Shown here in pieces: positions 1,160-20,527 of a DNA stretch of 24,181 nt. The stretch covers positions 1 through 24,181 of the forward strand of contig JBBRAE010000037.1 of the NCBI GenBank assembly GCA_038207085.1. Reading direction: 5' to 3'. Source of the DNA: Armatimonadota bacterium. Its GTDB lineage: Bacteria; Armatimonadota; UBA5829; DTLH01. Under the pieces are notes generated by a model that was not told the origin of the DNA, ran no database searches, and saw nothing but the letters and a program-made list of their open reading frames with translations. Numbering within the stretch: the first letter of the stretch is position 1; the number at the start of each line of letters is the position of its first letter. A program made the position numbers and the translations under genes.

Positions 1160-1249
1160 CCCGCATTATTCACGAGTAGTGTGAATAATGCTCTGTTAGC
1201 GAAAGCTTTTCGATGCTTCGGCTCGTCCTTTGGAGCCGAAGCCTTCTAA
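1156..1249 (-). mobile_element. Miniature palindromic element, copy 1 (variant: hairpin B plus linker, with a different second hairpin), flanked by CTAA..CTAA
   Basis: GCATTATTCAC-N7-GTGAATAATGC at 1163-1191. The linker TCTGTTAGCGAAAGCTTT is the reverse complement of the linker in the 20451 copy. GCTTCGGCTC-N8-GAGCCGAAGC hairpin at 1215-1242. CTAA at 1156-1159 and 1246-1249. Confidence 0.65.
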
Positions 1250-1428: not shown

Positions 1429-2019
1429 TCATACCACATCTCCATTGACCAATTCCATCAGTCTACGTCGCTCCCGCTCTCGTTCCTCAGCCACATATGC
1501 TGCTCTCTGTCGTTCATCCGCAATTGTCTGTGCCTCTTGTTCTCGCAGTTGCATTGATCGACACCGCGCGATCCATCGTTTCGAGTCCTTGTAATGCTCT
1601 ACTGCCGAGAAGTACCTAATTGCAGCTTGCCAGTCCTTCCGTGCGGCCTGCTGCTGTCCCGATGTGTTAAGGTAGTCTCTGTGCCTTTCCTTACACACCA
1701 TAACTCCGGTGACTGTGAAAGCGGTCATCGTAACTAGTAGGGCCACACCAAGAGCCCAATGACGAGAGAAGTAGGTAATCATACGCAGAATCGTAGCTAC
1801 CAATATGTCCATTCCTGAAAACGGTGGACCTAGGGCCATGGTGGTATGCTGTGGCGAGGTCCAGCCCCATGGGTCTGGTGTCCCCGAAGGCGGTGGTGGG
1901 TCAGGTGGCTGGCACTGCGCGCACATTCCATTGTCGGTGCATTGGTCACACACAAGGTGACCACAATTTGGACAACGCAAATACGCCAGTGAAGACTTGC
2001 AGATATGGCAGTTGGACAT
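1429..2019 (-). CDS. Hypothetical membrane protein: N-terminal Cys-rich zinc finger, Pro-rich linker, TM segment, TPR-like/coiled-coil C-terminus
   Basis: Four CxxC pairs in the first 37 aa, PPDPPPPS, hydrophobic WALGVALLVTMTAFTVTGVMV, a YKDS-containing helical repeat and a charged tail. Confidence 0.7.
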   Translation of the reverse strand: MSNCHICKSSLAYLRCPNCGHLVCDQCTDNGMCAQCQPPDPPPPSGTPDPWGWTSPQHTTMALGPPFSGMDILVATILRMITYFSRHWALGVALLVTMTAFTVTGVMVCKERHRDYLNTSGQQQAARKDWQAAIRYFSAVEHYKDSKRWIARCRSMQLREQEAQTIADERQRAAYVAEERERERRRLMELVNGDVV

Positions 2020-2073
2020 CCCTATAACCCCGACTCTGACAGTGCGGATAAATCAAGCGGCTCCTGCATACAC

Positions 2074-2105
2074 GACATTATGCTCTACCCCTAGAGCATA
2101 ATGTC
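2074..2105. promoter_or_regulatory. Perfect 14-bp inverted repeat overlapping a possible minus-strand promoter
   Basis: GACATTATGCTCTA-CCCC-TAGAGCATAATGTC. On the minus strand TTGACA (2107-2102) is 19 bp from CATAAT (2082-2077). Confidence 0.5.
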
Positions 2106-2181
2106 AAGTGAGTAAAACGTGACATACACCTTTTACTCGCCTCTCTTGCCGGTCGCAACCGGTCCACTCCAACGCAAGATA

Positions 2182-2206
2182 TGGTATGATATACATGTAT
2201 ATCATA
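2182..2206 (+). promoter_or_regulatory. relBE promoter (extended -10) and palindromic operator
   Basis: TGgTATGAT at 2182-2190. Perfect 22-bp palindrome TATGATATACA/TGTATATCATA at 2185-2206, directly before the RBS AGGAGG. Confidence 0.75.
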
Positions 2207-2219
2207 GGAGGTGCATACG

Positions 2220-2441
2220 ATGAAAAAAATGATGGCTATCCGGTTGCCCGAAGACATAGATCAGCGTCTGTCTGCACTTGCCAATCGTACGGGGAGAACG
2301 AAGACTTTCTACGCCAGGGAAGCCATTCTCAGGTACCTTGAGGATATGGAAGATACCTACGTCGCGCTCAAGCGCCTCGAACATCCAGACCGACGTCTTA
2401 GCATGGAAGAAGCGGAGCGCGAGCTTGGCTTGGAGCATTGA
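2220..2441 (+). CDS. relB: RelB/CopG-like ribbon-helix-helix antitoxin
   Basis: MAIRLPEDIDQRLSALANRTGRTKTFYAREAILRYLEDMED is a typical RHH antitoxin sequence. Strong RBS, and the gene overlaps the toxin start. Confidence 0.88.
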   Translation: MKKMMAIRLPEDIDQRLSALANRTGRTKTFYAREAILRYLEDMEDTYVALKRLEHPDRRLSMEEAERELGLEH

Positions 2442-2768
2442 GTGGGATGAGCGGGCGGTTAAGGATGCCAAGAAGCTGGATGAAAACGCGCGACGCAGGA
2501 TCGTCGGCTATCTTCGGGAGAGAGTCGCAACCGAAGAAGACCCCCGCAGGTTTGGCAAAGCTCTGACTGCGAGCAAGTCCGGTCTGTGGCGTTACCGGGT
2601 AGGAGGCTATCGGACCGTCTGCCGAATAGAAGATGAAAGGCTGATAGCCCGCTTTATTCGTGAAGCGAATAAAGCTCTCGCTAGCAAAGCGTTATTCACG
2701 CTCCTCGTGAATAATGCAGGATAGTGCTTATCCTGGCTGTAGGTCACCGAAAAACGGTGTACGGCTGA
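2425..2768 (+). pseudogene. relE: RelE/StbE toxin interrupted near its 3' end by a 77-bp insertion
   Basis: TTG 2425 starts MAWSIEWDERAVKDAKKLD...GKALT..GLWRYRVGGYR..CRIEDERLI. The present ORF runs into the element and stops at 2724. Deleting 2648-2724 gives ...ERLIVLILAVGHRKTVYG* (TGA 2766-2768). Confidence 0.88.
2644..2724 (+). mobile_element. Miniature palindromic element, copy 2 (73 bp, 2648-2720) with ATAG target duplication
   Basis: CCC-GCTTTATTCG(TGAAG)CGAATAAAGC-linker-GCGTTATTCACG(CTCCT)CGTGAATAATGC-AGG. ATAG at 2644-2647 and 2721-2724. Confidence 0.88.
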
Positions 2769-2946
2769 CCGCCGCAGGCCGGGCATACACTCCAAAGCAA
2801 CACACGCACGTCAATAATGAGCCTCTCATCCCTCCGCGCCTCTTGCCTTCAGCCCGCTATTGCTGCTATTCTATATGTGAGCTGTGCACCACAGCGGCGC
2901 ACGTCACTAAATATGTTCCTAGTGTGACGCATATACATCCAGCTCG

Positions 2947-2975
2947 TTGCTAATTTGCGCAGTATGTGATATACT
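2947..2975 (+). promoter_or_regulatory. Sigma70-type promoter of the ilvE-mcsA-mcsB(-clpC) operon
   Basis: TTGCTA-17 bp-TATACT with an extended -10 TG; RBS AGGAG before ATG 3001. Confidence 0.65.
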
Positions 2976-3000
2976 GTGAACATAACTTAGGAGCTCGCGT

Positions 3001-3873
3001 ATGGGACCAATGGTTTATCTCAACGGCAAACTCGTTCCTGACTCTGAAGCCTCGGTGTCGGTTATCGACCACGGTTTTATGTATGGGGACGGTATTTTTG
3101 AAGGTATTCGCGTATACAACCGCAAGATCTTCAAACTGAAAGAGCACATTGCTCGACTCTTTACAGGAGCGCGCGCTATTGCCATTGAGATTCCGATGGC
3201 AGAGGAGCAGTTCGTCGACGCGGTGTGTGAAGTGGTTCGCACCAACGAACTGGTAGACGGATATATCCGAGTCACAGTCTCGCGTGGACCGGCCCTGGGC
3301 CTCGACCCGAGGAACTGTACCAAGCCCACAATCGTAATTATGACCGGGAGTCTTGCTCTTTATCCCGAGGACATGTACCGCAACGGCCTCCGGGTTGTTA
3401 CGGTTTCGACCCGGGTGCCACCGGCGCAGTCGCTTGAGCCCAGGATCAAGTCGCTTGGCAAGTATATATGCAACATCCAGGCCAAGATCGAGGCGAACCT
3501 AGTGAACGCTGGCGAAGGCCTGATGCTAAACACCGAAGGCTACGTGGCCGAGTGCACCGGAGACAATATTTTCGTCATCAAGGGCGGGGTTGTGAAGACT
3601 CCTCCGGCTTACGCTGGGATCCTTGAAGGGATCACCCGCGCGACCGTTATGGACCTCGCCCGCGAGGCCGGTCTTCCGGTCGTAGAGACGATGATGACCA
3701 TTTTTGACGTTTACAGCGCCGACGAGTGCTTCCTTACAGGGACCGCGGCTGAGGTTATCCCCGTGGTCGATGTGGACTCTCGAAGGATCGGCGACGGCAA
3801 GCCCGGTGAGATCACCAACCAGTTGATCAAGGCGTTCCGAGTCGTTACCGCTTCGGAGGGCGTGCCGGTGTGA
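3001..3873 (+). CDS. ilvE: Branched-chain amino acid aminotransferase (class IV PLP enzyme)
   Basis: DHGFMYGDGIFEGIRVY, PRIKSL (PLP lysine), EGYVAECTGDNIF, ILEGITR, ADECFLTGTAAEVIPV. Confidence 0.93.
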   Translation: MGPMVYLNGKLVPDSEASVSVIDHGFMYGDGIFEGIRVYNRKIFKLKEHIARLFTGARAIAIEIPMAEEQFVDAVCEVVRTNELVDGYIRVTVSRGPALGLDPRNCTKPTIVIMTGSLALYPEDMYRNGLRVVTVSTRVPPAQSLEPRIKSLGKYICNIQAKIEANLVNAGEGLMLNTEGYVAECTGDNIFVIKGGVVKTPPAYAGILEGITRATVMDLAREAGLPVVETMMTIFDVYSADECFLTGTAAEVIPVVDVDSRRIGDGKPGEITNQLIKAFRVVTASEGVPV

Positions 3874-4257: not shown

Positions 4258-5301
4258 ATGTGGAAGCACACCCCACCGGCTTGGACCAGGGCCGACGGAC
4301 CGGAGTCGGACATCGTTCTTTCGACGCGAGCGAGGCTTGCGAGGAACGTTTCGGGGGTTCCTTTCCCCGGAAGAGCCGGCGGGTCGGACCTTGAAAACGT
4401 AGCGGAGCTTGCGAGGCTTTCGGCAAAAGGTCTTGCCCGGAAGTGGCCGAAGATCGAGGTCTATGACGTTGCCGCGATCGACGAAGACAGCCGGATGTTC
4501 CTGGTAGACGCCCATCTCGCGAGCCCGTGGCAAATTACCCCACGTCCTGGGGGTGCAATTCTGCTGGAGCCGAGCGGCACAATTGCCATAATGGTTAATG
4601 AGGAAGATCATTTTCGTATGCAGGCAATTCTGCCTGGCCTGCAGCCGCTTGCGGCGTGGCAGATGGTGGATGAGATAGACGATGAGCTTGCAAAATCTAT
4701 CAGATTCGCGTATTCTGATCGTCTCGGATATCTAACCGCAAGCCTTTCGAACCTGGGCACGGGCCTTAGGATTTCGGCGATGATGCACCTTGCGGGCCTT
4801 GCAAACGTTGGACGCCTTCGAGCGACCCTTCGGGCCGCAATCGAGCTCGGGGTTTCGGTGCGAGGGTTTTTTGGGGAAGGCTCACAGGGGCTTGGTGATC
4901 TTTATCAGGTCTCAAACGAGATGACTCTCGGAGCGCCGGAGCGAGAGCTTGCCGAGCGGGTTCGGGGAGTGGCCGAGCATATTCTGATTGAGGAGCGTCG
5001 GGCGAGAGAAGAGCTTTCTTCCGATGGCCGAGCGAAGATCCTGCGGGCCGCGAGAGCGAACATAAGAAAGATCAGGGGAGCTGAGACGATTTCATCGGGC
5101 GATGCGCTTGCCCTGCTTTCGCCGATCAGGCTTGCCGCCTCGGTTGCACGAATCGACGGGCTGGGCGCCATGCTCCTAAACGAGCTTATGGTCGAAATGA
5201 AAGTGGTCCATAGCGGCGACCCGAGCCGTCAGGCGACAACAGTCGCCGACCGCCATCGAGCGGTGCATCTGCGCAGGCGTCTGCGTGGAATAGATTTTTG
5301 A
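4258..5301 (+). CDS. mcsB: McsB-family protein-arginine kinase / ATP:guanido phosphotransferase
   Basis: DIVLSTRARLARN, IMVNEEDHFRMQ, GYLTASLSNLGTGLRIS, VRGFFGEGS, YQVSNEMTLG; located between mcsA and clpC. Confidence 0.9.
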   Translation: MWKHTPPAWTRADGPESDIVLSTRARLARNVSGVPFPGRAGGSDLENVAELARLSAKGLARKWPKIEVYDVAAIDEDSRMFLVDAHLASPWQITPRPGGAILLEPSGTIAIMVNEEDHFRMQAILPGLQPLAAWQMVDEIDDELAKSIRFAYSDRLGYLTASLSNLGTGLRISAMMHLAGLANVGRLRATLRAAIELGVSVRGFFGEGSQGLGDLYQVSNEMTLGAPERELAERVRGVAEHILIEERRAREELSSDGRAKILRAARANIRKIRGAETISSGDALALLSPIRLAASVARIDGLGAMLLNELMVEMKVVHSGDPSRQATTVADRHRAVHLRRRLRGIDF

Positions 5302-5457
5302 ATGAGAACTAGCATTCCTGCGAACCAACAGTGCAGGTAATTCGTCTAGTATAGTGGAATACACTTACAATATAGAGTTCACCGGAGGCAGGAAGCCTCC
5401 ATAGTGTTCGGAGCCAGCTGGTTCCGAACAGTCCCTAGCAAAGGAGGGAAACGATAA

Positions 5458-7923
5458 ATGTGGCAGAGGTTCACGGAGCGAGCACGGAGAGTGGTGTTCT
5501 TTGCCCAGGAAGAGGCCGGCAGACTCGGCGAGAATTATGTCTCGACTGAGCACCTGCTCCTCGGACTGGTCAGAGAAAACGACAGCGTTGCAGCGAGAAT
5601 CCTTGACCGCATGGGTGTAAGCCTCAGTCGGATCAAGTCCGAGATTGAGCGGCAGGTCTCTCGCGGAGACGGTCGCCTTGGGCAGGACATGCAGCTTACC
5701 CCCAGAGCGAAACGAGTGATCGACCTTGCCTACGATGAGGCGAGACAACTCAATAACAACTATATCGGCACTGAGCACCTTCTCCTTGGACTAATCCGGG
5801 AGGCCGAAGGCTTGGCAGGCCGCGTGCTTGCCAAGCTGGGTGTTGATCTTGAGCGCACCAGGCGCGAGGTCACGAGCCTTCAGGACGGAGATACGGCGCT
5901 CTCGCCTGCCGCTGGTGGGCGCACCAGATCGCGCACCCCTACTTTGGATGAGTTCGGGCGCGACCTGACTGAGCTGGCGCGCAACGAAAAACTGGACCCT
6001 TGCATCGGTCGCAACAGTGAGATTGAGCGTGTGATCCAGATTCTATCGCGGCGCACGAAGAATAACCCGGCCCTCATCGGTGAACCCGGTGTTGGTAAGA
6101 CTGCTATTGCCGAAGGCCTCGCACAGAGGATCATCGCCGGAGACACTCCGGAGACCCTTCGGGACAAGCGGATCGTATCCTTGGACCTTGCGGGGCTGGT
6201 AGCCGGAACCAAGTATCGCGGCGAGTTTGAAGAGCGGATGAAACGCGTTATGGAAGAGGTGCGCAAAGCCTCGGGCGAGGTCATCCTGTTCATCGACGAG
6301 CTTCACACGCTTGTCGGGGCGGGAGCCGCCGAAGGGGCCATCGACGCTTCCAACATAATGAAACCGGCTCTGGCACGAGGCGAACTGCAGTGCATCGGCG
6401 CAACTACGATGGACGAGTTCCGAAAGTACATCGAGCGCGACGCGGCACTGGAGAGAAGGTTCCAGCCGGTAAAGGTTAGCGAGCCATCCGTGGAGGAGGC
6501 GATCGAGATCCTGAAGGGGATTCGCGACCGCTACGAAAGCCACCACGGCGTGGAAATACGAGATGGAGCACTGTTGGCTGCCGCAAGGCTTGCCGACAGA
6601 TACATAACCGACAGGTTCCTGCCGGACAAAGCTATCGACCTGATCGACGAAGCGGCTTCGAGGGTGAGACTGCAGCTTACGCTGCCGCCTCAGAACCTTC
6701 GGGCTGCAAAGCAGGAGCTCGCGAAGATCACCAAAGACCTAAACGGCATTCCCGCAAGCGAGCAGTATGACGACGGCCCACAGCTTGCTGCAAAGCAAAA
6801 AGAGCTGAAAGCCAAGGTCGACGAGCTTGACGCTGAGTGGCAGGAGAGCAGAAGCTCTCTGCCGAACATAGTGGACGAGGACCAGATCGCCCACATTGTC
6901 TACAGTTGGACGGGTATTCCCGTCTCGCGCCTCGTTGAAGGCGAGAGCGCGAAGCTGCTCAAGATGGAAGAGGCGCTTCATGGGCGCTTGATTGGGCAGC
7001 ATGAGGCTGTGGTCGCCGTATCCAAGGCGGTGCGGCGCGCAAGGTCCGGCTTGAAGGACCCGAGACGGCCGATGGGAACGTTTATCTTCCTTGGCCCGAC
7101 CGGCGTCGGAAAGACGGAGCTTGCAAGGGCACTTGCGGCGTTCCTCTTCGACAACGAAGAGGCGCTTATCAGGATCGACATGTCCGAGTATATGGAGCGC
7201 TTTGCGGTCTCAAGACTCGTCGGGGCTCCTCCCGGATACGTCGGGTATGATGAGGGTGGTCAGCTCACCGAAGCTGTAAAGCGAAAGCCTTACTCGGTGG
7301 TGCTGCTTGACGAGATAGAAAAGGCCCATCCCGAGGTCTTCAACATCCTGCTCCAGGTTATGGAGGACGGGCGGTTGACGGACTCTCAGGGCAGGGTCAT
7401 CGACTTCAAGAACACGGTTTTGATCATGACGTCGAATATCGGCGCGCAGTCGATCGCAAGCGGTGAGAATATCGGGTTCCGCCCGGCAGTCAAGCCGCAG
7501 GAGAACGAGCGAGCCTACGACAGCATGAGAAACAGGATCGTGGACGAGATGAAGCGGCTGTTCAGGCCAGAGTTCTTGAACAGGGTAGACGAGACGATCG
7601 TCTTCCATCCGCTGACTCAGGACGAGATCCTGCAGATCGTGGACCTGATGGTCTCAAGAGTTCGGACCCAGCTAACCACGCAGGGCATCGGTCTTGAGGT
7701 CACTCAGGAGGTCAAAGAGACGCTGGCGAAGGAAGGCTTCGACCCGCAGTTTGGCGCACGGCCTCTTCGCCGCGCGATCCAGCGGTATATCGAAGACCCG
7801 CTTTCCGAGGAGATATTGCTCGGACGCTTCAGCGAAGGCGACACAATCCGCGCCGAGCTCGAAGACGGACGAATCTTCTTCACGAAGGCCGAAAACCGCG
7901 AGGTCGCAACGACCAGCATATAA
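5458..7923 (+). CDS. clpC: ATP-dependent Clp protease ATP-binding subunit ClpC
   Basis: Two Clp-N repeats (TEHLLLGL), Walker A motifs GEPGVGKT and GPTGVGKT, short M domain, GYVG pore loop, IGF ClpP-docking loop; RBS AAGGAGG. Confidence 0.96.
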
Positions 7924-7954
7924 GCCGATCCGAAAAGATCGACAACGACTAACC

Positions 7955-7989
7955 AAAGCCCCCGCCGAGATAATCGGCGGGGGCTTTTT
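7955..7989 (+). terminator. Rho-independent terminator after clpC
   Basis: AAAGCCCCCGCCGA-GATAA-TCGGCGGGGGCTTT followed by TT. Confidence 0.88.
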
Positions 7990-8261
7990 GATGCTGCGTA
8001 TGGGAAACAAAAACGCGTTAACTCACAATATCCCCCGGGGTAAATAGAAAACAAAGGCAAGAAACGACACGTCAGGGGGAAGATCCGTGAAAAACCCAAA
8101 TCACGCTTTTTACCGCGAATCGACAAGACGACGAAACGCGCTTTCGGCCAGAACTTCGGCGGGATCATCGGCGAGTCCGACCCGGGGCGATCCTCTGTGA
8201 GCCGTGGGAACTGATAGACGGCTGAGTTCGCAATATTGTTTCCAAGCGAAACCGGCAGGCG

Positions 8262-8290
8262 TTGTCGGCAACCCCCAAATGCTGTATAAT
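8262..8290 (+). promoter_or_regulatory. Sigma70-type promoter of the aldo/keto reductase
   Basis: TTGTCG-17 bp-TATAAT. Confidence 0.6.
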
Positions 8291-8382
8291 TAAACTGCCG
8301 GGCATAATGCACGGGACTTCGAAAAACATCGGCGTTGTTGCCTGGCGACGCCGCAAGGTCCCGCACTGTTTTTGGAGAAAAG

Positions 8383-9357
8383 ATGATTTATCGGCAACTT
8401 GGACAATCTGGAATGGACGTTTCAGTTATCGGCCTTGGCACCTGGGCTATGGGCGGCACCTGGTGGGGAGGTACCGATGAAGAGGACTCCGTCGCCGCTA
8501 TCCGCTATGGCCTCGATAACGGGATAAACCTGATCGACACCGCGCCCGTCTACGGCTATGGCCTCGCGGAGACAATCGTCGGGCAGGCGATCAAGAGTTA
8601 TGACCGCGACAAAGTCTTTATCGCGACCAAAGTCGGCCTTATCTGGCACAAGGCGATGGGAGTCGCGTTTTTTGAGGCTGATGGTAAGAAGGTCTATCGC
8701 AGCCTGAAGCCCGAGAACATCCGATACGAGGTGGAACAGAGCCTGACGCGCCTGGACGTCGACTATATAGACCTCTACCAGACCCACTGGCAGGACCCGA
8801 AGACCTCCATCGCCGACACGATGGCCGAGCTCCTCAAGCTAAAAGACGAGGGCAAGATCCGCGCGATCGGAGTCTCAAATGCAAGCGTCCACCAGATGGA
8901 GCAGTACCTTGGGGTGGGGCGGATCGAGTCCACCCAGCCGCTGTACAACATGCTCGACCGGGCGATCGAGGAAGAAGAGTTGCCGTTCAGCATCGAGCAT
9001 ATGGTCGGGGTCCTGAGCTACTCGACCCTTGGCATGGGGCTTCTGACAGGCAAAATGACCCCTGACCGCCAGTTCCCAGCAGGTGACACGCGGGCGGAGC
9101 GTCCGCAGTTTGCCTTTGAGCCGATCGAAAAGATCAACGCGATGCTCGAAAAGTTTGCGCCTTTCCGGAACAAGTATGGCCTGACCCAGCCCCAGCTGAC
9201 CGCAAGTTGGGCGATCAGCCGCCACGGCGTGACATGCGCCCTGGTAGGCGTGCGAAACGTCGATCAGGCCGCTGAGATCATCCCCGCCGGCAACGTGCTG
9301 ATCGAGGAGTCCGACCTCGAAGCAATGGACCAAATAATCGAGGCTGCTGAGGTCTAA
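8383..9357 (+). CDS. Aldo/keto reductase (AKR11/YhdN-like)
   Basis: ATG 8383 after GGAG. YRQLGQSGMDVSVIGLGTWAMGG, IDTAPVYG, IATKVG, IDLYQTHW, GKIRAIGVSN. Confidence 0.93.
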   Translation: MIYRQLGQSGMDVSVIGLGTWAMGGTWWGGTDEEDSVAAIRYGLDNGINLIDTAPVYGYGLAETIVGQAIKSYDRDKVFIATKVGLIWHKAMGVAFFEADGKKVYRSLKPENIRYEVEQSLTRLDVDYIDLYQTHWQDPKTSIADTMAELLKLKDEGKIRAIGVSNASVHQMEQYLGVGRIESTQPLYNMLDRAIEEEELPFSIEHMVGVLSYSTLGMGLLTGKMTPDRQFPAGDTRAERPQFAFEPIEKINAMLEKFAPFRNKYGLTQPQLTASWAISRHGVTCALVGVRNVDQAAEIIPAGNVLIEESDLEAMDQIIEAAEV

Positions 9358-9380
9358 GTTTTTAGGCTATGGCATAGCAT

Positions 9381-9411
9381 AAAAAAGAACCCCGGACTCC
9401 GGGGTTCTTTT
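9381..9411. terminator. Bidirectional terminator between the convergent AKR genes
   Basis: AAAAAAGAACCCCGG-ACT-CCGGGGTTCTTTT. Confidence 0.85.
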
Positions 9412-9444
9412 GCATTACACATACTTCAAACGAGAGGTCTAACC

Positions 9445-11055
9445 TCAGGCCAGCGTCTGAATATCGGTTGACGATCGCACTCTGACACATCTGAAGTAGT
9501 CGGGGTCGACGAAGTAGAGCGTCGAGATCCCGGTGACGGCGACGAACTTGTTGAGTGCCGGCCGTGTGATCGTGCCGCTGTCGACTCTCACGCCCTTGAC
9601 TGCCCCTCCGCTTGGCACTCCGCAGCCGTCGTCTATGATAAAGTATCCGGCGCCGGACTCAACAACCCTGCCTACGGTCTTGACGAGCATCCCCACATTG
9701 TTCAAGCCCGACCCGCCGAGCACACCGATCTGCCCCTGGCCGTTTACTGAGCCGCGGGCATAGTCGGCTCCACCAAGCGCCGCGTTTGAAAGCGCGACCG
9801 GGTTGACCGTGGCATTTGTCGACACTTGGGTTCTGGAGGTTATCGACACATAGCGCTCGCCGTTGGTGTCGGTTGTGATCATGCCCACGATTCTCTGACG
9901 GCTCTTTAGCACAGGCATCGTAAGCGTGCCTGTGAGCTTGAACTTCATTCCACCCGTGCGGTCGAAAGACTCGGCATAGAAGCAGTCTGAAAAGACCGCA
10001 GTCACCACAACGCCTGCGTTGTTTTCGTCATTGATTGTAACTCCTACGCTGTCTGGCCTGCGCTTGGCGTCGGTTATCCACATATAAGTCTGGTTCAGGC
10101 GCCGCTCCATCTGCCCGCACTCGTACTCTGTCATCGGCACGAAGTTCTTGACGACGTTCGCCAGTTGCCCCACTTGGTAGTAGTTGGCTACTCCAGGGAC
10201 AATCACGTCAACGGTCTGCCCTCTAGGCACAGACAGGGCGTATCGGATCATCGACTGGTAGTCCACCTGCCCCATACCGTACCCTACAGTGACGCTTGGA
10301 TACCCTCCTCCAAGTGGCTTCATACCGATAACGCCTATGTTCTTGCTGCGACACATCGGCACCTGATCAGTCCAGTAAGGAAGAGAGGAGTTCAGACCGT
10401 TGGCAAACCCGAGGAAGCAGTCCCAGTCGTACATCGTAAGCGCCGTTTTGACGTTTGCGGAGTCCGGATGCCCGGTCATACCCATAAAGCGAATGACCCC
10501 CTCATCCCGCAGCTTGCAAAGTGTCCAGTAGGCCCCGTTGGTCTGCCCAAAGGCTGCGAGGTTGTCGTTGTTGTTGACCATGTGAACCTGCAGCAGGTCG
10601 ATATAGCTTGTCTGCAGAGCGAGGAGGCTGTTCTCCACCTCGGGCATGATTATATCGTAGGTGCGGTTGGCAAGCCCCGCTTCAAATTTGGTGGCAAGAA
10701 ACGCCTCACTGCGCCGGGTTGCCATAACCAGTCCGATTCGGAGTTGGCTTCGGTTGTAGTTGTTCGCGGTGTCGAGATAGGAAATGCCGTTGTCTAAGGC
10801 GTTGTGGATAGCGTTTGCCACATAAGGGTCATCGGCATCCGTGCCGTCCTTAATCCAGCAGGCTCCGCCGAGCCCGAGGCGGCTGACTGATACTCCTGTC
10901 CGTCCCAGAACAACCTGTGGCAGCTTCTGGGAGTACGACATGGGGTAGGGCCCTGCCGCTTCAGCTTTCTTGGCTCCGGACAACACCGAAAGACCGACTC
11001 CAGCAGCAACCGTCCCCGATGCTTTCAGGAACTCTCTGCGAGTCAAGTTATTCAT
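9445..11055 (-). CDS. Tat-exported aldo/keto reductase with an extra ~210-aa C-terminal beta-rich domain
   Basis: TRREFLK twin-arginine signal and AEA cleavage site. AKR motifs LGRTGVSVSRLGLG, YLDTANNY, FLATK, IDLLQVH, GMKPLGGG. C-terminal region VVTAVFSDCFY..DR..G / GLNNVGMLVKTVGRV / YFIIDDG..GVRV / VAVTGIS. Confidence 0.87.
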   Translation of the reverse strand: MNNLTRREFLKASGTVAAGVGLSVLSGAKKAEAAGPYPMSYSQKLPQVVLGRTGVSVSRLGLGGACWIKDGTDADDPYVANAIHNALDNGISYLDTANNYNRSQLRIGLVMATRRSEAFLATKFEAGLANRTYDIIMPEVENSLLALQTSYIDLLQVHMVNNNDNLAAFGQTNGAYWTLCKLRDEGVIRFMGMTGHPDSANVKTALTMYDWDCFLGFANGLNSSLPYWTDQVPMCRSKNIGVIGMKPLGGGYPSVTVGYGMGQVDYQSMIRYALSVPRGQTVDVIVPGVANYYQVGQLANVVKNFVPMTEYECGQMERRLNQTYMWITDAKRRPDSVGVTINDENNAGVVVTAVFSDCFYAESFDRTGGMKFKLTGTLTMPVLKSRQRIVGMITTDTNGERYVSITSRTQVSTNATVNPVALSNAALGGADYARGSVNGQGQIGVLGGSGLNNVGMLVKTVGRVVESGAGYFIIDDGCGVPSGGAVKGVRVDSGTITRPALNKFVAVTGISTLYFVDPDYFRCVRVRSSTDIQTLA

Positions 11056-17324: not shown

Positions 17325-17359
17325 CCCGCTTTATTCGCTTCACGAATAAAGCCGACTAA
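17321..17359 (-). mobile_element. Miniature palindromic element, copy 3 (single hairpin A, 31 bp) flanked by CTAA..CTAA
   Basis: CTAA-CCC-GCTTTATTCG(CTTCA)CGAATAAAGC-CGA-CTAA. The left CTAA contains the uvsE stop codon. Confidence 0.75.
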
Positions 17360-19106: not shown

Positions 19107-19109
19107 GCC

Positions 19110-20450
19110 ATGAAATACGATGTCGTCATAATCGGGGCCGGCCCGGCTGGCATATTCGCGGCGCTTGAGCTCGCCAAGACAGATGGGCTCAAGGTCGCGG
19201 TGATCGACAAGGGCCCGGACATCGACCGCCGCACCCGCACAAGCTCGCTTCTCTCCGGCTGGGGAGGGGCGGGGGCGTTCTCCGACGGCAAGCTCACGCT
19301 CTCGACGCACGTCGGCGGCTGGCTCGACCGGCTGATGCCCGAGCACGACCTCCAGGAGCTGATCGAGCAGGTGGACCGCATCTGGATCGACTTCGGGGCT
19401 CCCGAGCGCACCTACGGCACTGATCATGACGACATTGTAGAGATCCAGCGAAGAGCGGCGCTGGCCGAAATGCGCCTTGTCCCCTCCGAGATTCGCCACA
19501 TGGGAACCGAGGTATGCCCGGAGATTTTGACGGGCATGCGCGATGCGCTTCGTGACCGGGTAGATATCATGACCGACTCGGCTGTCGCCCGGATCATCAC
19601 CGAGAACTCGCATGTGACAGGCGTTGAGCTCCTCGACGGGCGGGTGATCGAGACCGACTACCTGATTGTCGCTCCCGGGCGCGAAGGGTCCAACTGGCTT
19701 GTCTCCGAGGCCAAGCGTCTCGGGCTCAAGATGATCACCAACCCCGTAGACATCGGCGTGCGGGTAGAGATCCCCGCGGCTGTGATGTCCGACATCACCG
19801 ACATAGTCTACGAGCCCAAACTTATCTACTACACCCGGGGCTTTGACGACCAGGTCAGAAGCTTCTGCGTCTGCCCGATGGGGGAGGTGGCGATGGAGGA
19901 AAGCGACGGCGTCCGCACCGTAAACGGCCACTCCTACGCCCACAAAAAGACTGAGAACACCAACTTTGCGCTCCTTGTCTCAACCCAGTTCACCGAGCCG
20001 TTTCGTGAGCCGATCACCTACGGCCGATACATCGCGACACTTTCCAACCTGCTCTCGGACGGCGTCATCGTGCAGCGCCTCGGCGACCTGCATGCGGGGC
20101 GGCGCTCGACTGAAGCCAGGATCGCGCGCGGGCTTGTGAAACCTACCCTTGAGAGCGCCGTCCCCGGCGACCTCTCATTCGTGCTTCCCTACAGGTATCT
20201 TTCGGCGATACTTGAGATGCTGCGTGCGATGGACAAGCTTGCCCCGGGCGTAGGGTCGCGCCACACGCTGCTCTATGGGGTCGAGGTGAAGTTCTACTCC
20301 TCGCGCCTCGTGCTCTCCCCCCTGCTTGAGAGCGGGGTGCACAACCTCTTTACCTGCGGCGACGGAGCGGGCGTGACCCGAGGCATCGTGCAGGCATCGG
20401 CTTCGGGGATGATCGCGGCGCGCGAGATCCTGCGCCGAGTCGCCGGTTAG
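19110..20450 (+). CDS. FAD-dependent oxidoreductase (COG2509-like)
   Basis: YDVVIIGAGPAGIFAA, GWGGAGAFSDGKL, DIGVRVE, RSFCVCP, VNGHS, LYGVEVKFYS, GDGAGVTRG. Confidence 0.9.
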   Translation: MKYDVVIIGAGPAGIFAALELAKTDGLKVAVIDKGPDIDRRTRTSSLLSGWGGAGAFSDGKLTLSTHVGGWLDRLMPEHDLQELIEQVDRIWIDFGAPERTYGTDHDDIVEIQRRAALAEMRLVPSEIRHMGTEVCPEILTGMRDALRDRVDIMTDSAVARIITENSHVTGVELLDGRVIETDYLIVAPGREGSNWLVSEAKRLGLKMITNPVDIGVRVEIPAAVMSDITDIVYEPKLIYYTRGFDDQVRSFCVCPMGEVAMEESDGVRTVNGHSYAHKKTENTNFALLVSTQFTEPFREPITYGRYIATLSNLLSDGVIVQRLGDLHAGRRSTEARIARGLVKPTLESAVPGDLSFVLPYRYLSAILEMLRAMDKLAPGVGSRHTLLYGVEVKFYSSRLVLSPLLESGVHNLFTCGDGAGVTRGIVQASASGMIAAREILRRVAG

Positions 20451-20527
20451 CCCGCTTTATTCGTGAAGCGAATAAAGCTTTCGCTAACAGAGCATTATTC
20501 ACGTCACTCGTGAATAATGCCGGTTAG
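20447..20527 (+). mobile_element. Miniature palindromic element, copy 4 (73 bp, 20451-20523) with TTAG target duplication
   Basis: Same length and architecture as 2648-2720. TTAG at 20447-20450 (contains the gene's stop codon) and at 20524-20527. Confidence 0.85.

Follow-up and report, generated by a model that had tools for sequence, protein, structure and literature searches.

The 24,181-nucleotide stretch of contig JBBRAE010000037.1 from an Armatimonadota bacterium (assembly GCA_038207085.1; the whole stretch is called the window here) carries a relBE type II toxin-antitoxin module in which the toxin gene, relE, runs into a palindromic repeat before it reaches the end expected of a RelE protein. 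This raises the question of what the repeat is, how it came to lie in relE, and what has become of the toxin. Our answer, which we consider highly probable as a whole, is that a miniature inverted-repeat transposable element (MITE) of the IS1380 type inserted into relE and duplicated the target tetranucleotide ATAG, and that the toxin is very probably dead. The draft genome comprises 83 contigs, totals 3.35 Mb and has a G+C content of 57%.

The insertion site can be read directly from the window sequence. Two copies of ATAG, at 2644-2647 and 2721-2724, enclose a segment of 73 bp (2648-2720), and the initial annotation, which had described this bracketed segment, was correct in both coordinates and sequences. 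As it stands, the relE frame runs from the TTG at 2425 to the TAG at 2722-2724 and specifies 99 residues, the last 25 of which are encoded by the element. Whichever register of the ATAG repeat is chosen, deletion of 77 bp leads to a single reading of 88 residues that stops at 2766-2768. The locus is otherwise organized like known RelBE modules, with relB followed by relE, overlapping genes (the end of relB and the start of relE share 17 nt) and a ribbon-helix-helix antitoxin. The cognate antitoxin gene thus lies immediately upstream of relE, and its product matches the Pfam RHH and TraY domains. In contrast to these modules, the toxin gene is split here.

Both readings of relE, interrupted and excised, were compared with related proteins. 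A relBE pair is found in four related genomes (G007, G037, G018 and G025; loci L002-L005) at 68-70% DNA identity, and this DNA match stops just short of the insertion point. In tblastn searches, the excised reading aligned with these four loci over residues 1-87 or 1-90 at 63-71% identity; the interrupted reading aligned over residues 1-74 only, at 62-70% identity. A search of a protein database yielded 294 homologues at E <= 1e-5, and the 119 listed among them, with the window's own protein set aside, were used as the homologue set. Ninety-nine of the 119 listed homologues are 88 residues long, and none of the 119 carries the element-encoded peptide. When scored against a profile built here from the same 119 proteins, which is the only profile applied to the excised reading, this reading reached 157.6 bits (positions 1-87) versus 130.4 bits (positions 1-78) for the interrupted one and 129.7 bits for its first 74 residues alone. 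With the RelE/StbE model TIGR02385 (cut-off 27.9), the interrupted protein scored 25.9 bits over profile positions 2-80 of 88 and failed, and the closest intact homologue (P0002, 78% identical) passed with 31.2 bits over positions 2-88. The Pfam model PF05016 (ParE_toxin, cut-off 23) gave the interrupted protein 40.5 bits, restricted to positions 1-79 of the 89 in the profile, and P0002 56 bits over the full profile (1-89). Four other RelE-like frames in the genome are distant, with 31-37% identity. The initial annotation had held that removing 77 bp restores the RelE C-terminus and had asked whether this improves the alignment to RelE proteins, or whether homologues naturally end in the element-encoded peptide. 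Collinearity with the four related-genome homologues and the profile of the 119 bear out the restored C-terminus, and a natural ending of the latter kind was seen in none of the listed homologues.

To judge the consequence for the toxin, we considered which residues are lost. G81, R83 and Y87, which all lie in the lost segment, do not vary in an alignment of 28 homologues. The profile of this alignment matched 2KHE, a 'toxin-like protein' and the closest solved structure, at 3.9e-30, and E. coli RelE (4V7K, 4V7J and 4FXE) at about 1e-10. In the alignment to PDB entry 4V7K, R83 and Y87 fall on R81 and Y87 of E. coli RelE. [quoted passage not shown] The equivalents of both residues are missing from the 99-residue product, which has neither the GHRxxVY segment nor the beta-strand that precedes it, and they are carried by the orphan 3' part of the gene (2725-2765). 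Since the 14 lost residues carry the equivalents of R81 and Y87, we infer strongly that the interrupted toxin is very probably inactive, as the initial annotation had suspected.

Another possibility is that the 99-residue protein is a functional variant, for example a non-toxic partner that titrates RelB or acts as co-repressor with it. In favour of such a role, residues 1-74 show no decay, the reading frame crosses the element uninterrupted and closes with a clean stop, and relB is intact. However, the tail is found in none of the 119 listed homologues and is the plain translation of a repeat with 122 copies in this genome (see below); the same peptide also matches non-coding copies at loci L007 and L008. 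In addition, the 3' part of relE, which is not expressed, is likewise undecayed, and this fits a recent accident better. We therefore regard a functional variant as very unlikely, and return to the disrupted toxin gene.

The draft state of the genome invites the suspicion that a repeat copy was misjoined into relE during assembly. High-copy repeats break assemblers, the draft consists of 83 contigs, and the word depth is 5,000-10,000 within the element versus about 13 in the flanks. Public data were consulted in the form of Logan contigs of the probable source run (X1) and of a second run from the same study (X2). Contigs of X1 cross both junctions without any mismatch: one match extends over 2150-2671, from unique relE sequence to 24 nt into the element, and one over 2691-3150, from 30 nt inside the element to unique downstream sequence. 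No contig joint skips the element. Moreover, a perfect 4-bp duplication together with exact codon collinearity after excision is unlike a misjoin. An assembly artefact is hardly credible on these grounds, and the insertion is real in the dominant population. In X2, contigs cover 2762-3150 (depth 6.7) and the repeat only, and none lies on the relBE part at 2150-2625. This could reflect a strain without the relBE module or a mere contig gap.

The element itself was then analyzed. Folded as single-stranded DNA, the region 2640-2730 is predicted to form two hairpins (2651-2675 and 2689-2717) with -22.1 kcal/mol; 200 shuffled sequences gave a mean of -10.4 kcal/mol (z = -4.8), and none of them folded as well. 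Within the core, the left terminal repeat begins at 2648, the right terminal repeat extends up to 2720, and an internal CTAG is located at 2681-2684. The terminal inverted repeats read CCCGCTTTATTCG at the left end and, as reverse complement of the right end, CCTGCATTATTCACG in the relE copy and CCCGCATTATTCACG in the consensus. In each hairpin, the terminal repeat CCCGC[T/A]TTATTC... is paired with its own inward-facing copy, so that the element consists of two foldback modules. The 73-bp core has no coding capacity for a transposase and is short, as MITEs are (< about 600 bp). No Rfam family matched 2000-3100 at E values of up to 1. On all the sequence features tested, the element is a MITE.

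Copies of the element are abundant in the genome. A short-query BLAST search returned 206 matching pieces, 106 of them full length. With a full copy defined as two outward-facing ends (12-nt core, at most 1 mismatch) 60-80 bp apart, the genome contains 122 full copies, and 117 of these are exactly 73 bp long. In 102 of the 122, the tetranucleotides on either side of the core are the same; when the right flanks were shuffled 10,000 times, such pairs numbered 30.4 on average and never more than 50. The flanks also covary copy by copy within sequence subfamilies (TTAG/TTAG, CTAG/CTAG, ATAG/ATAG, CTAA/CTAA, CTAT/CTAT and GTAG/GTAG). A looser set of 151 hits, in which some loci were counted on both strands, had 118 identical flanks, namely TTAG (62), CTAG (31), CTAA (12), ATAG (6), CTAT (4), GTAG (2) and CTAC (1). 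The element genuinely duplicates 4 bp of its target, with YTAR-like sites preferred (Y, pyrimidine; R, purine), which supports the mobile element with a 4-bp target duplication that the initial annotation had proposed. The copy number, the site preference and the likely IS1380 parentage (see below) go beyond that annotation. Because there are 122 full copies, 102 with identical flanks against a shuffle maximum of 50, the palindrome in relE is not a chance structure. Of the other copies, 14 share 72 of the 73 positions with the relE copy and a further seven share 71, and the excised relE reading retains all 23 positions that are invariant in the 28-homologue alignment (23/23 by residue count). 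From these similarities, together with the undecayed gene, we infer that the insertion is a recent event.

Short hairpin-forming repeats in high copy number are also typical of repetitive extragenic palindromes (REP) and REP doublets forming hairpins (REPINs), which would be moved as single-stranded DNA by a REP-associated tyrosine transposase (RAYT) of the IS200/IS605-like type. The element does have two strong hairpins, and RAYT-like genes are present, with two Y1_Tnp matches in the genome (C5:71048-71383 and C23:43444-43608). Yet 102 of 122 copies carry the same 4 bp on both sides, with a sequence that changes between copies, whereas REP and IS200/IS605 elements are not known to duplicate their target. 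A search at up to 3 kb from each Y1_Tnp gene detected no terminal repeat of the family (at most 2 mismatches) beyond weak, chance-like hits. Unlike REP sequences, the 73-bp element thus combines a covarying 4-bp duplication with termini of a DDE-type insertion sequence (IS), those of IS1380, and has no association with a Y1 gene. An origin as REP or REPIN is extremely unlikely.

The termini point to a different parent. Members of the IS1380 family generally have 'CC' ends and duplicate 4-5 bp. The end of contig C75 (G000:C75:1-860) carries the N-terminal part of an IS1380-family transposase, which is cut by the contig end. This piece scored 141.7 bits with NF033539 in the genome search, reading through one TGA, and 140.3 bits when the 174-residue piece was scored alone. 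An IS1380-like left end, CTAG followed by CCCGAATAATTCG..., is located on C75 about 330 bp upstream of the transposase piece. A second IS1380-like end was found on contig C43, and a transposase fragment 79% identical to the C75 piece on contig C55 (G000:C55:2235-2537). Relatives of the C75 piece occur in 18 of 301 sampled genomes of the phylum, the source genome included. A full-length transposase, that of element L019, scored 361 bits with NF033539 and 439 bits with PF13701; as a query for related loci it retrieved only 4 loci.

The ends of full-length IS1380-family elements follow the pattern CCCG[G/A/C/T]NTTATTCA[T/C]. Their first 14 nt equal the MITE ends at 9-12 of 14 positions in the seven elements of Table 1, and the 13-nt end of a related MITE module in genome G039 is identical to the right end of L020. 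Five of these elements (L019, L020, L025, L051 and L053) share with the MITE not only the CCCG..TTATTC type of end but also a 4-bp CTAG or ATAG duplication. The differences are that the 73-bp element has no transposase gene and that IS1247, an IS1380-family element, is given with a 5-bp duplication in Table 2 of PMC3281130. Because its ends match and five full-length IS1380 elements show the same 4-bp duplication, the element is in all likelihood a MITE from a subgroup of IS1380 with 4-bp duplications at YTAR, and it may be mobilized by an IS1380 transposase.

Candidates for a parent within the genome that did not hold up were two end pairs of 1196 bp and 1919 bp on contigs C6 and C13, which are two separate elements around cysteine-synthase-like and ParB-like frames, and a 468-residue transposase on contig C48, which is IS701/IS4-like, far below the cut-offs and without matching ends nearby.

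The target preference alone would also be expected of the IS5 group within the IS5 family, which duplicates 4 bp at YTAR, and the spectrum of TTAG, CTAG and CTAA targets agrees with such an origin. However, no IS5-type transposase with ends of this kind was found in the genome: PF13586 gave 0 matches, and the two matches to PF01609 (DDE_Tnp_1) have no such ends nearby. The ends instead match IS1380-family elements that make the same duplication. We consider derivation from an IS5-family element very unlikely, and keep to IS1380.

Table 1. Features of the window and IS1380-family elements used for comparison. Positions refer to the window; for the IS1380-family elements the length is given instead.
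Feature	Position or length	Strand	Left flank and end	Right end and flank	Remarks
MITE half copy, hairpin-2 module	1160..1209	-			CTAA and internal TTAG flanks
relB antitoxin gene	2220..2441	+			73 residues, ribbon-helix-helix, intact; NF048017 90.5 bits (cut-off 50)
relE 5' part	2425..2647	+			From the TTG start through codon 74 to the first base of codon 75
Left ATAG copy of 4-bp target duplication	2644..2647				
73-bp MITE core	2648..2720	+			Fold, 122 genome copies, IS1380-like termini
Right ATAG copy of target duplication	2721..2724				TAG 2722-2724 is the stop of the interrupted frame
relE 3' part	2725..2768	+			Last two bases of codon 75 and 13 codons (...AVGHRKTVYG), stop TGA 2766-2768
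Lone hairpin-1 module	17325..17355	+			CTAA before it
Second full MITE copy of the window	20447..20527	+			Core 20451-20523, target duplication TTAG
L019	1677 bp		ctag, CCCGAAATATTCAT	ATGAATAGGTCAGG, ctag	Flanks identical
L020	1655 bp		ctag, CCCGGATTATTCAT	ATGAATAATCCAGG, ctag	Flanks identical
L025	1734 bp		atag, CCCGAATTATTCAT	ATGAATAATCCGGG, atag	Flanks identical
L051	1623 bp		ctag, CCCGTCTTATTCAC	GTGAATAAGACGGG, ctag	Flanks identical; proteobacterial, transposase 37% identical to L019 query
L053	1621 bp		ctag, CCCGCCTTATTCAT	GTGAATTAGACGGG, ctag	Flanks identical; proteobacterial, transposase 37% identical to L019 query
L027	1726 bp		ctaa	ttag	Flanks differ
L024	1695 bp				Flanks differ, not YTAR-like on either side

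We propose the following course of events. A non-autonomous 73-bp MITE of the IS1380 type inserted at codon 74/75 of relE and duplicated its target ATAG. An IS1380-family DDE transposase presumably moves the MITE in trans, recognizing its terminal repeats and targeting YTAR-like tetranucleotides. The insertion swaps the last 14 residues of RelE, which comprise the final beta-strand and the GHRxxVY segment, for 25 residues encoded by the element. The stop codon of the interrupted gene is supplied by the TAG of the duplication, and the RelB antitoxin gene stays untouched.

Several observations speak against this account or parts of it. No contig joint that lacks the element, and hence marks an empty site, was found in X1 or X2, whose contigs drop rare variants. 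The search for uninterrupted alleles, suggested by the initial annotation, likewise returned no such allele of the same gene, but only the distant homologues in related genomes, which are 68-70% identical in DNA at the locus. The 83-contig draft contains no intact IS1380 transposase gene, no match in it reaches the family cut-off of 180 bits, and no pair of family ends in the genome encloses a transposase gene (pairs 100-6000 bp apart were examined). Among the full-length IS1380-family elements, L027 and L024 have flanks that differ, and those of L024 are not YTAR-like on either side. Recent mobility of the family is suggested by a single kind of evidence, the 14 copies at 72/73 identity. Half elements and single-hairpin units of 26-35 bp exist besides the full copies, so the unit of transposition may differ from the 73-bp core. 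Finally, some activity, or binding to RelB, might persist in the 74-residue RelE core.

In addition to the full copies, the genome has 10 units of a single hairpin (26-35 bp) and 87 ends without a partner, spread over most contigs. Some of the unpaired ends are half elements that stop at the internal CTAG or CTAA; others match the core by chance or belong to full copies in which one end has diverged. The 10 single-hairpin units, each composed of an end, a loop and an inverted end, are flanked by YTAR, with direct identical flanks in 3 and inverted flanks in 3. The element family is present in 7 of the 301 sampled genomes of the phylum, again including the source genome, and was also found in further relatives. 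Related two-hairpin MITEs of 72-73 bp were found in genomes G005, G257, G008 and G039, with duplications of TTAG, GTAG, CTAG and CTAG, respectively. Elements of these genomes (L043, L047 and L049 in G039/G008, L046 in G257 and L007 in G005) combine different hairpin modules. This suggests a modular exchange of foldback units.

The positions of the copies relative to genes were analyzed for the 102 copies with perfect duplication. For this purpose, each copy was excised computationally and the longest stop-to-stop frame spanning the site was determined. The median spanning frame was 112 codons at MITE sites and 314 codons at 3000 random YTAR sites. Frames of at least 300 codons span 13 of the 102 MITE sites versus 52% of the random sites. 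The TAG or TAA of the duplication serves as the stop of a frame of at least 200 codons in 26 of the 102 copies, compared to 7.6% of random TTAG, CTAG or CTAA sites. The second full copy of the window (20451-20523) is an example, placed precisely at the TAG that ends a 447-codon frame (19107-20450). Insertions at stop codons regenerate the stop and are harmless. The insertion in relE is one of the few copies inside a coding frame.

A bolder reading of these data, which we put forward tentatively and think rather unlikely, is that the 73-bp element, as a 'double foldback' MITE in the IS1380/piggyBac superfamily, is active to this day. It would be built of 31-35-bp palindromes, each consisting of a terminal repeat and its inverted copy, and such blocks would pass from genome to genome and might even be mobile by themselves; YTAG targets that contain a stop would make gene ends safe landing sites. 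If this were true, the blocks of 31-35 bp would be among the smallest transposable units in bacteria, and in-frame hits within genes, like that in relE, would bring their own stop.

Two other kinds of repeat were noted. The genome contains 33 tandem arrays of at least 4 heptamers NTAGCNN, mostly TTAGCTN (e.g. C5:80651, C2:199072 and C45:8825). Several MITE copies lie in or beside heptamer runs, and only 1 of the 33 strict arrays is at most 40 bp from an element end. The window also has a 41-nt direct repeat of 98% identity (1-41 and 1360-1400) with a spacing of 1359 bp.

Bacterial MITEs include Correia/NEMIS in Neisseria, Nezha in Anabaena and Nostoc, and MaeMITEs in Microcystis. The element in relE resembles such MITEs in being short and non-coding, in its terminal inverted repeats, target duplication, many copies and strong predicted fold, and also in its mostly intergenic positions with occasional gene disruption. 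Sizes given in print are 176-429 bp for Microcystis (in passages of PMC2779907) and 77-541 bp for Anabaena sp. 90. Compared to these MITEs, the 73-bp element is smaller and differs in its unusual double-foldback build and 4-bp YTAR duplication. A full-text literature search, which did not extend to ISfinder, found no description of an IS1380-derived MITE, and the tie of the Armatimonadota MITE family to IS1380 is likely a new result of the present analysis. As stated in passages of PMC10813416, IS1380 is a prokaryotic relative of, and outgroup for, piggyBac, which duplicates the tetranucleotide TTAA and keeps it at its ends.

The disruption of a toxin gene is ordinary damage by mobile DNA; the link to IS1380 and the landing on stop codons are modestly interesting. 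The locus offers a clean worked example of a MITE that very probably kills a toxin gene and spares the antitoxin. This is the direction that selection tolerates, because loss of the antitoxin would instead arrest growth. For genome annotation, masking the 73-bp family together with its 4-bp duplication would recover split genes and account for many hairpins at gene ends. For the phylum, a high-copy repeat of Armatimonadota is tied here to IS1380 transposases, bacterial relatives of piggyBac with a little-studied mechanism, and more than 100 natural insertion sites define their target (YTAR, 4 bp).

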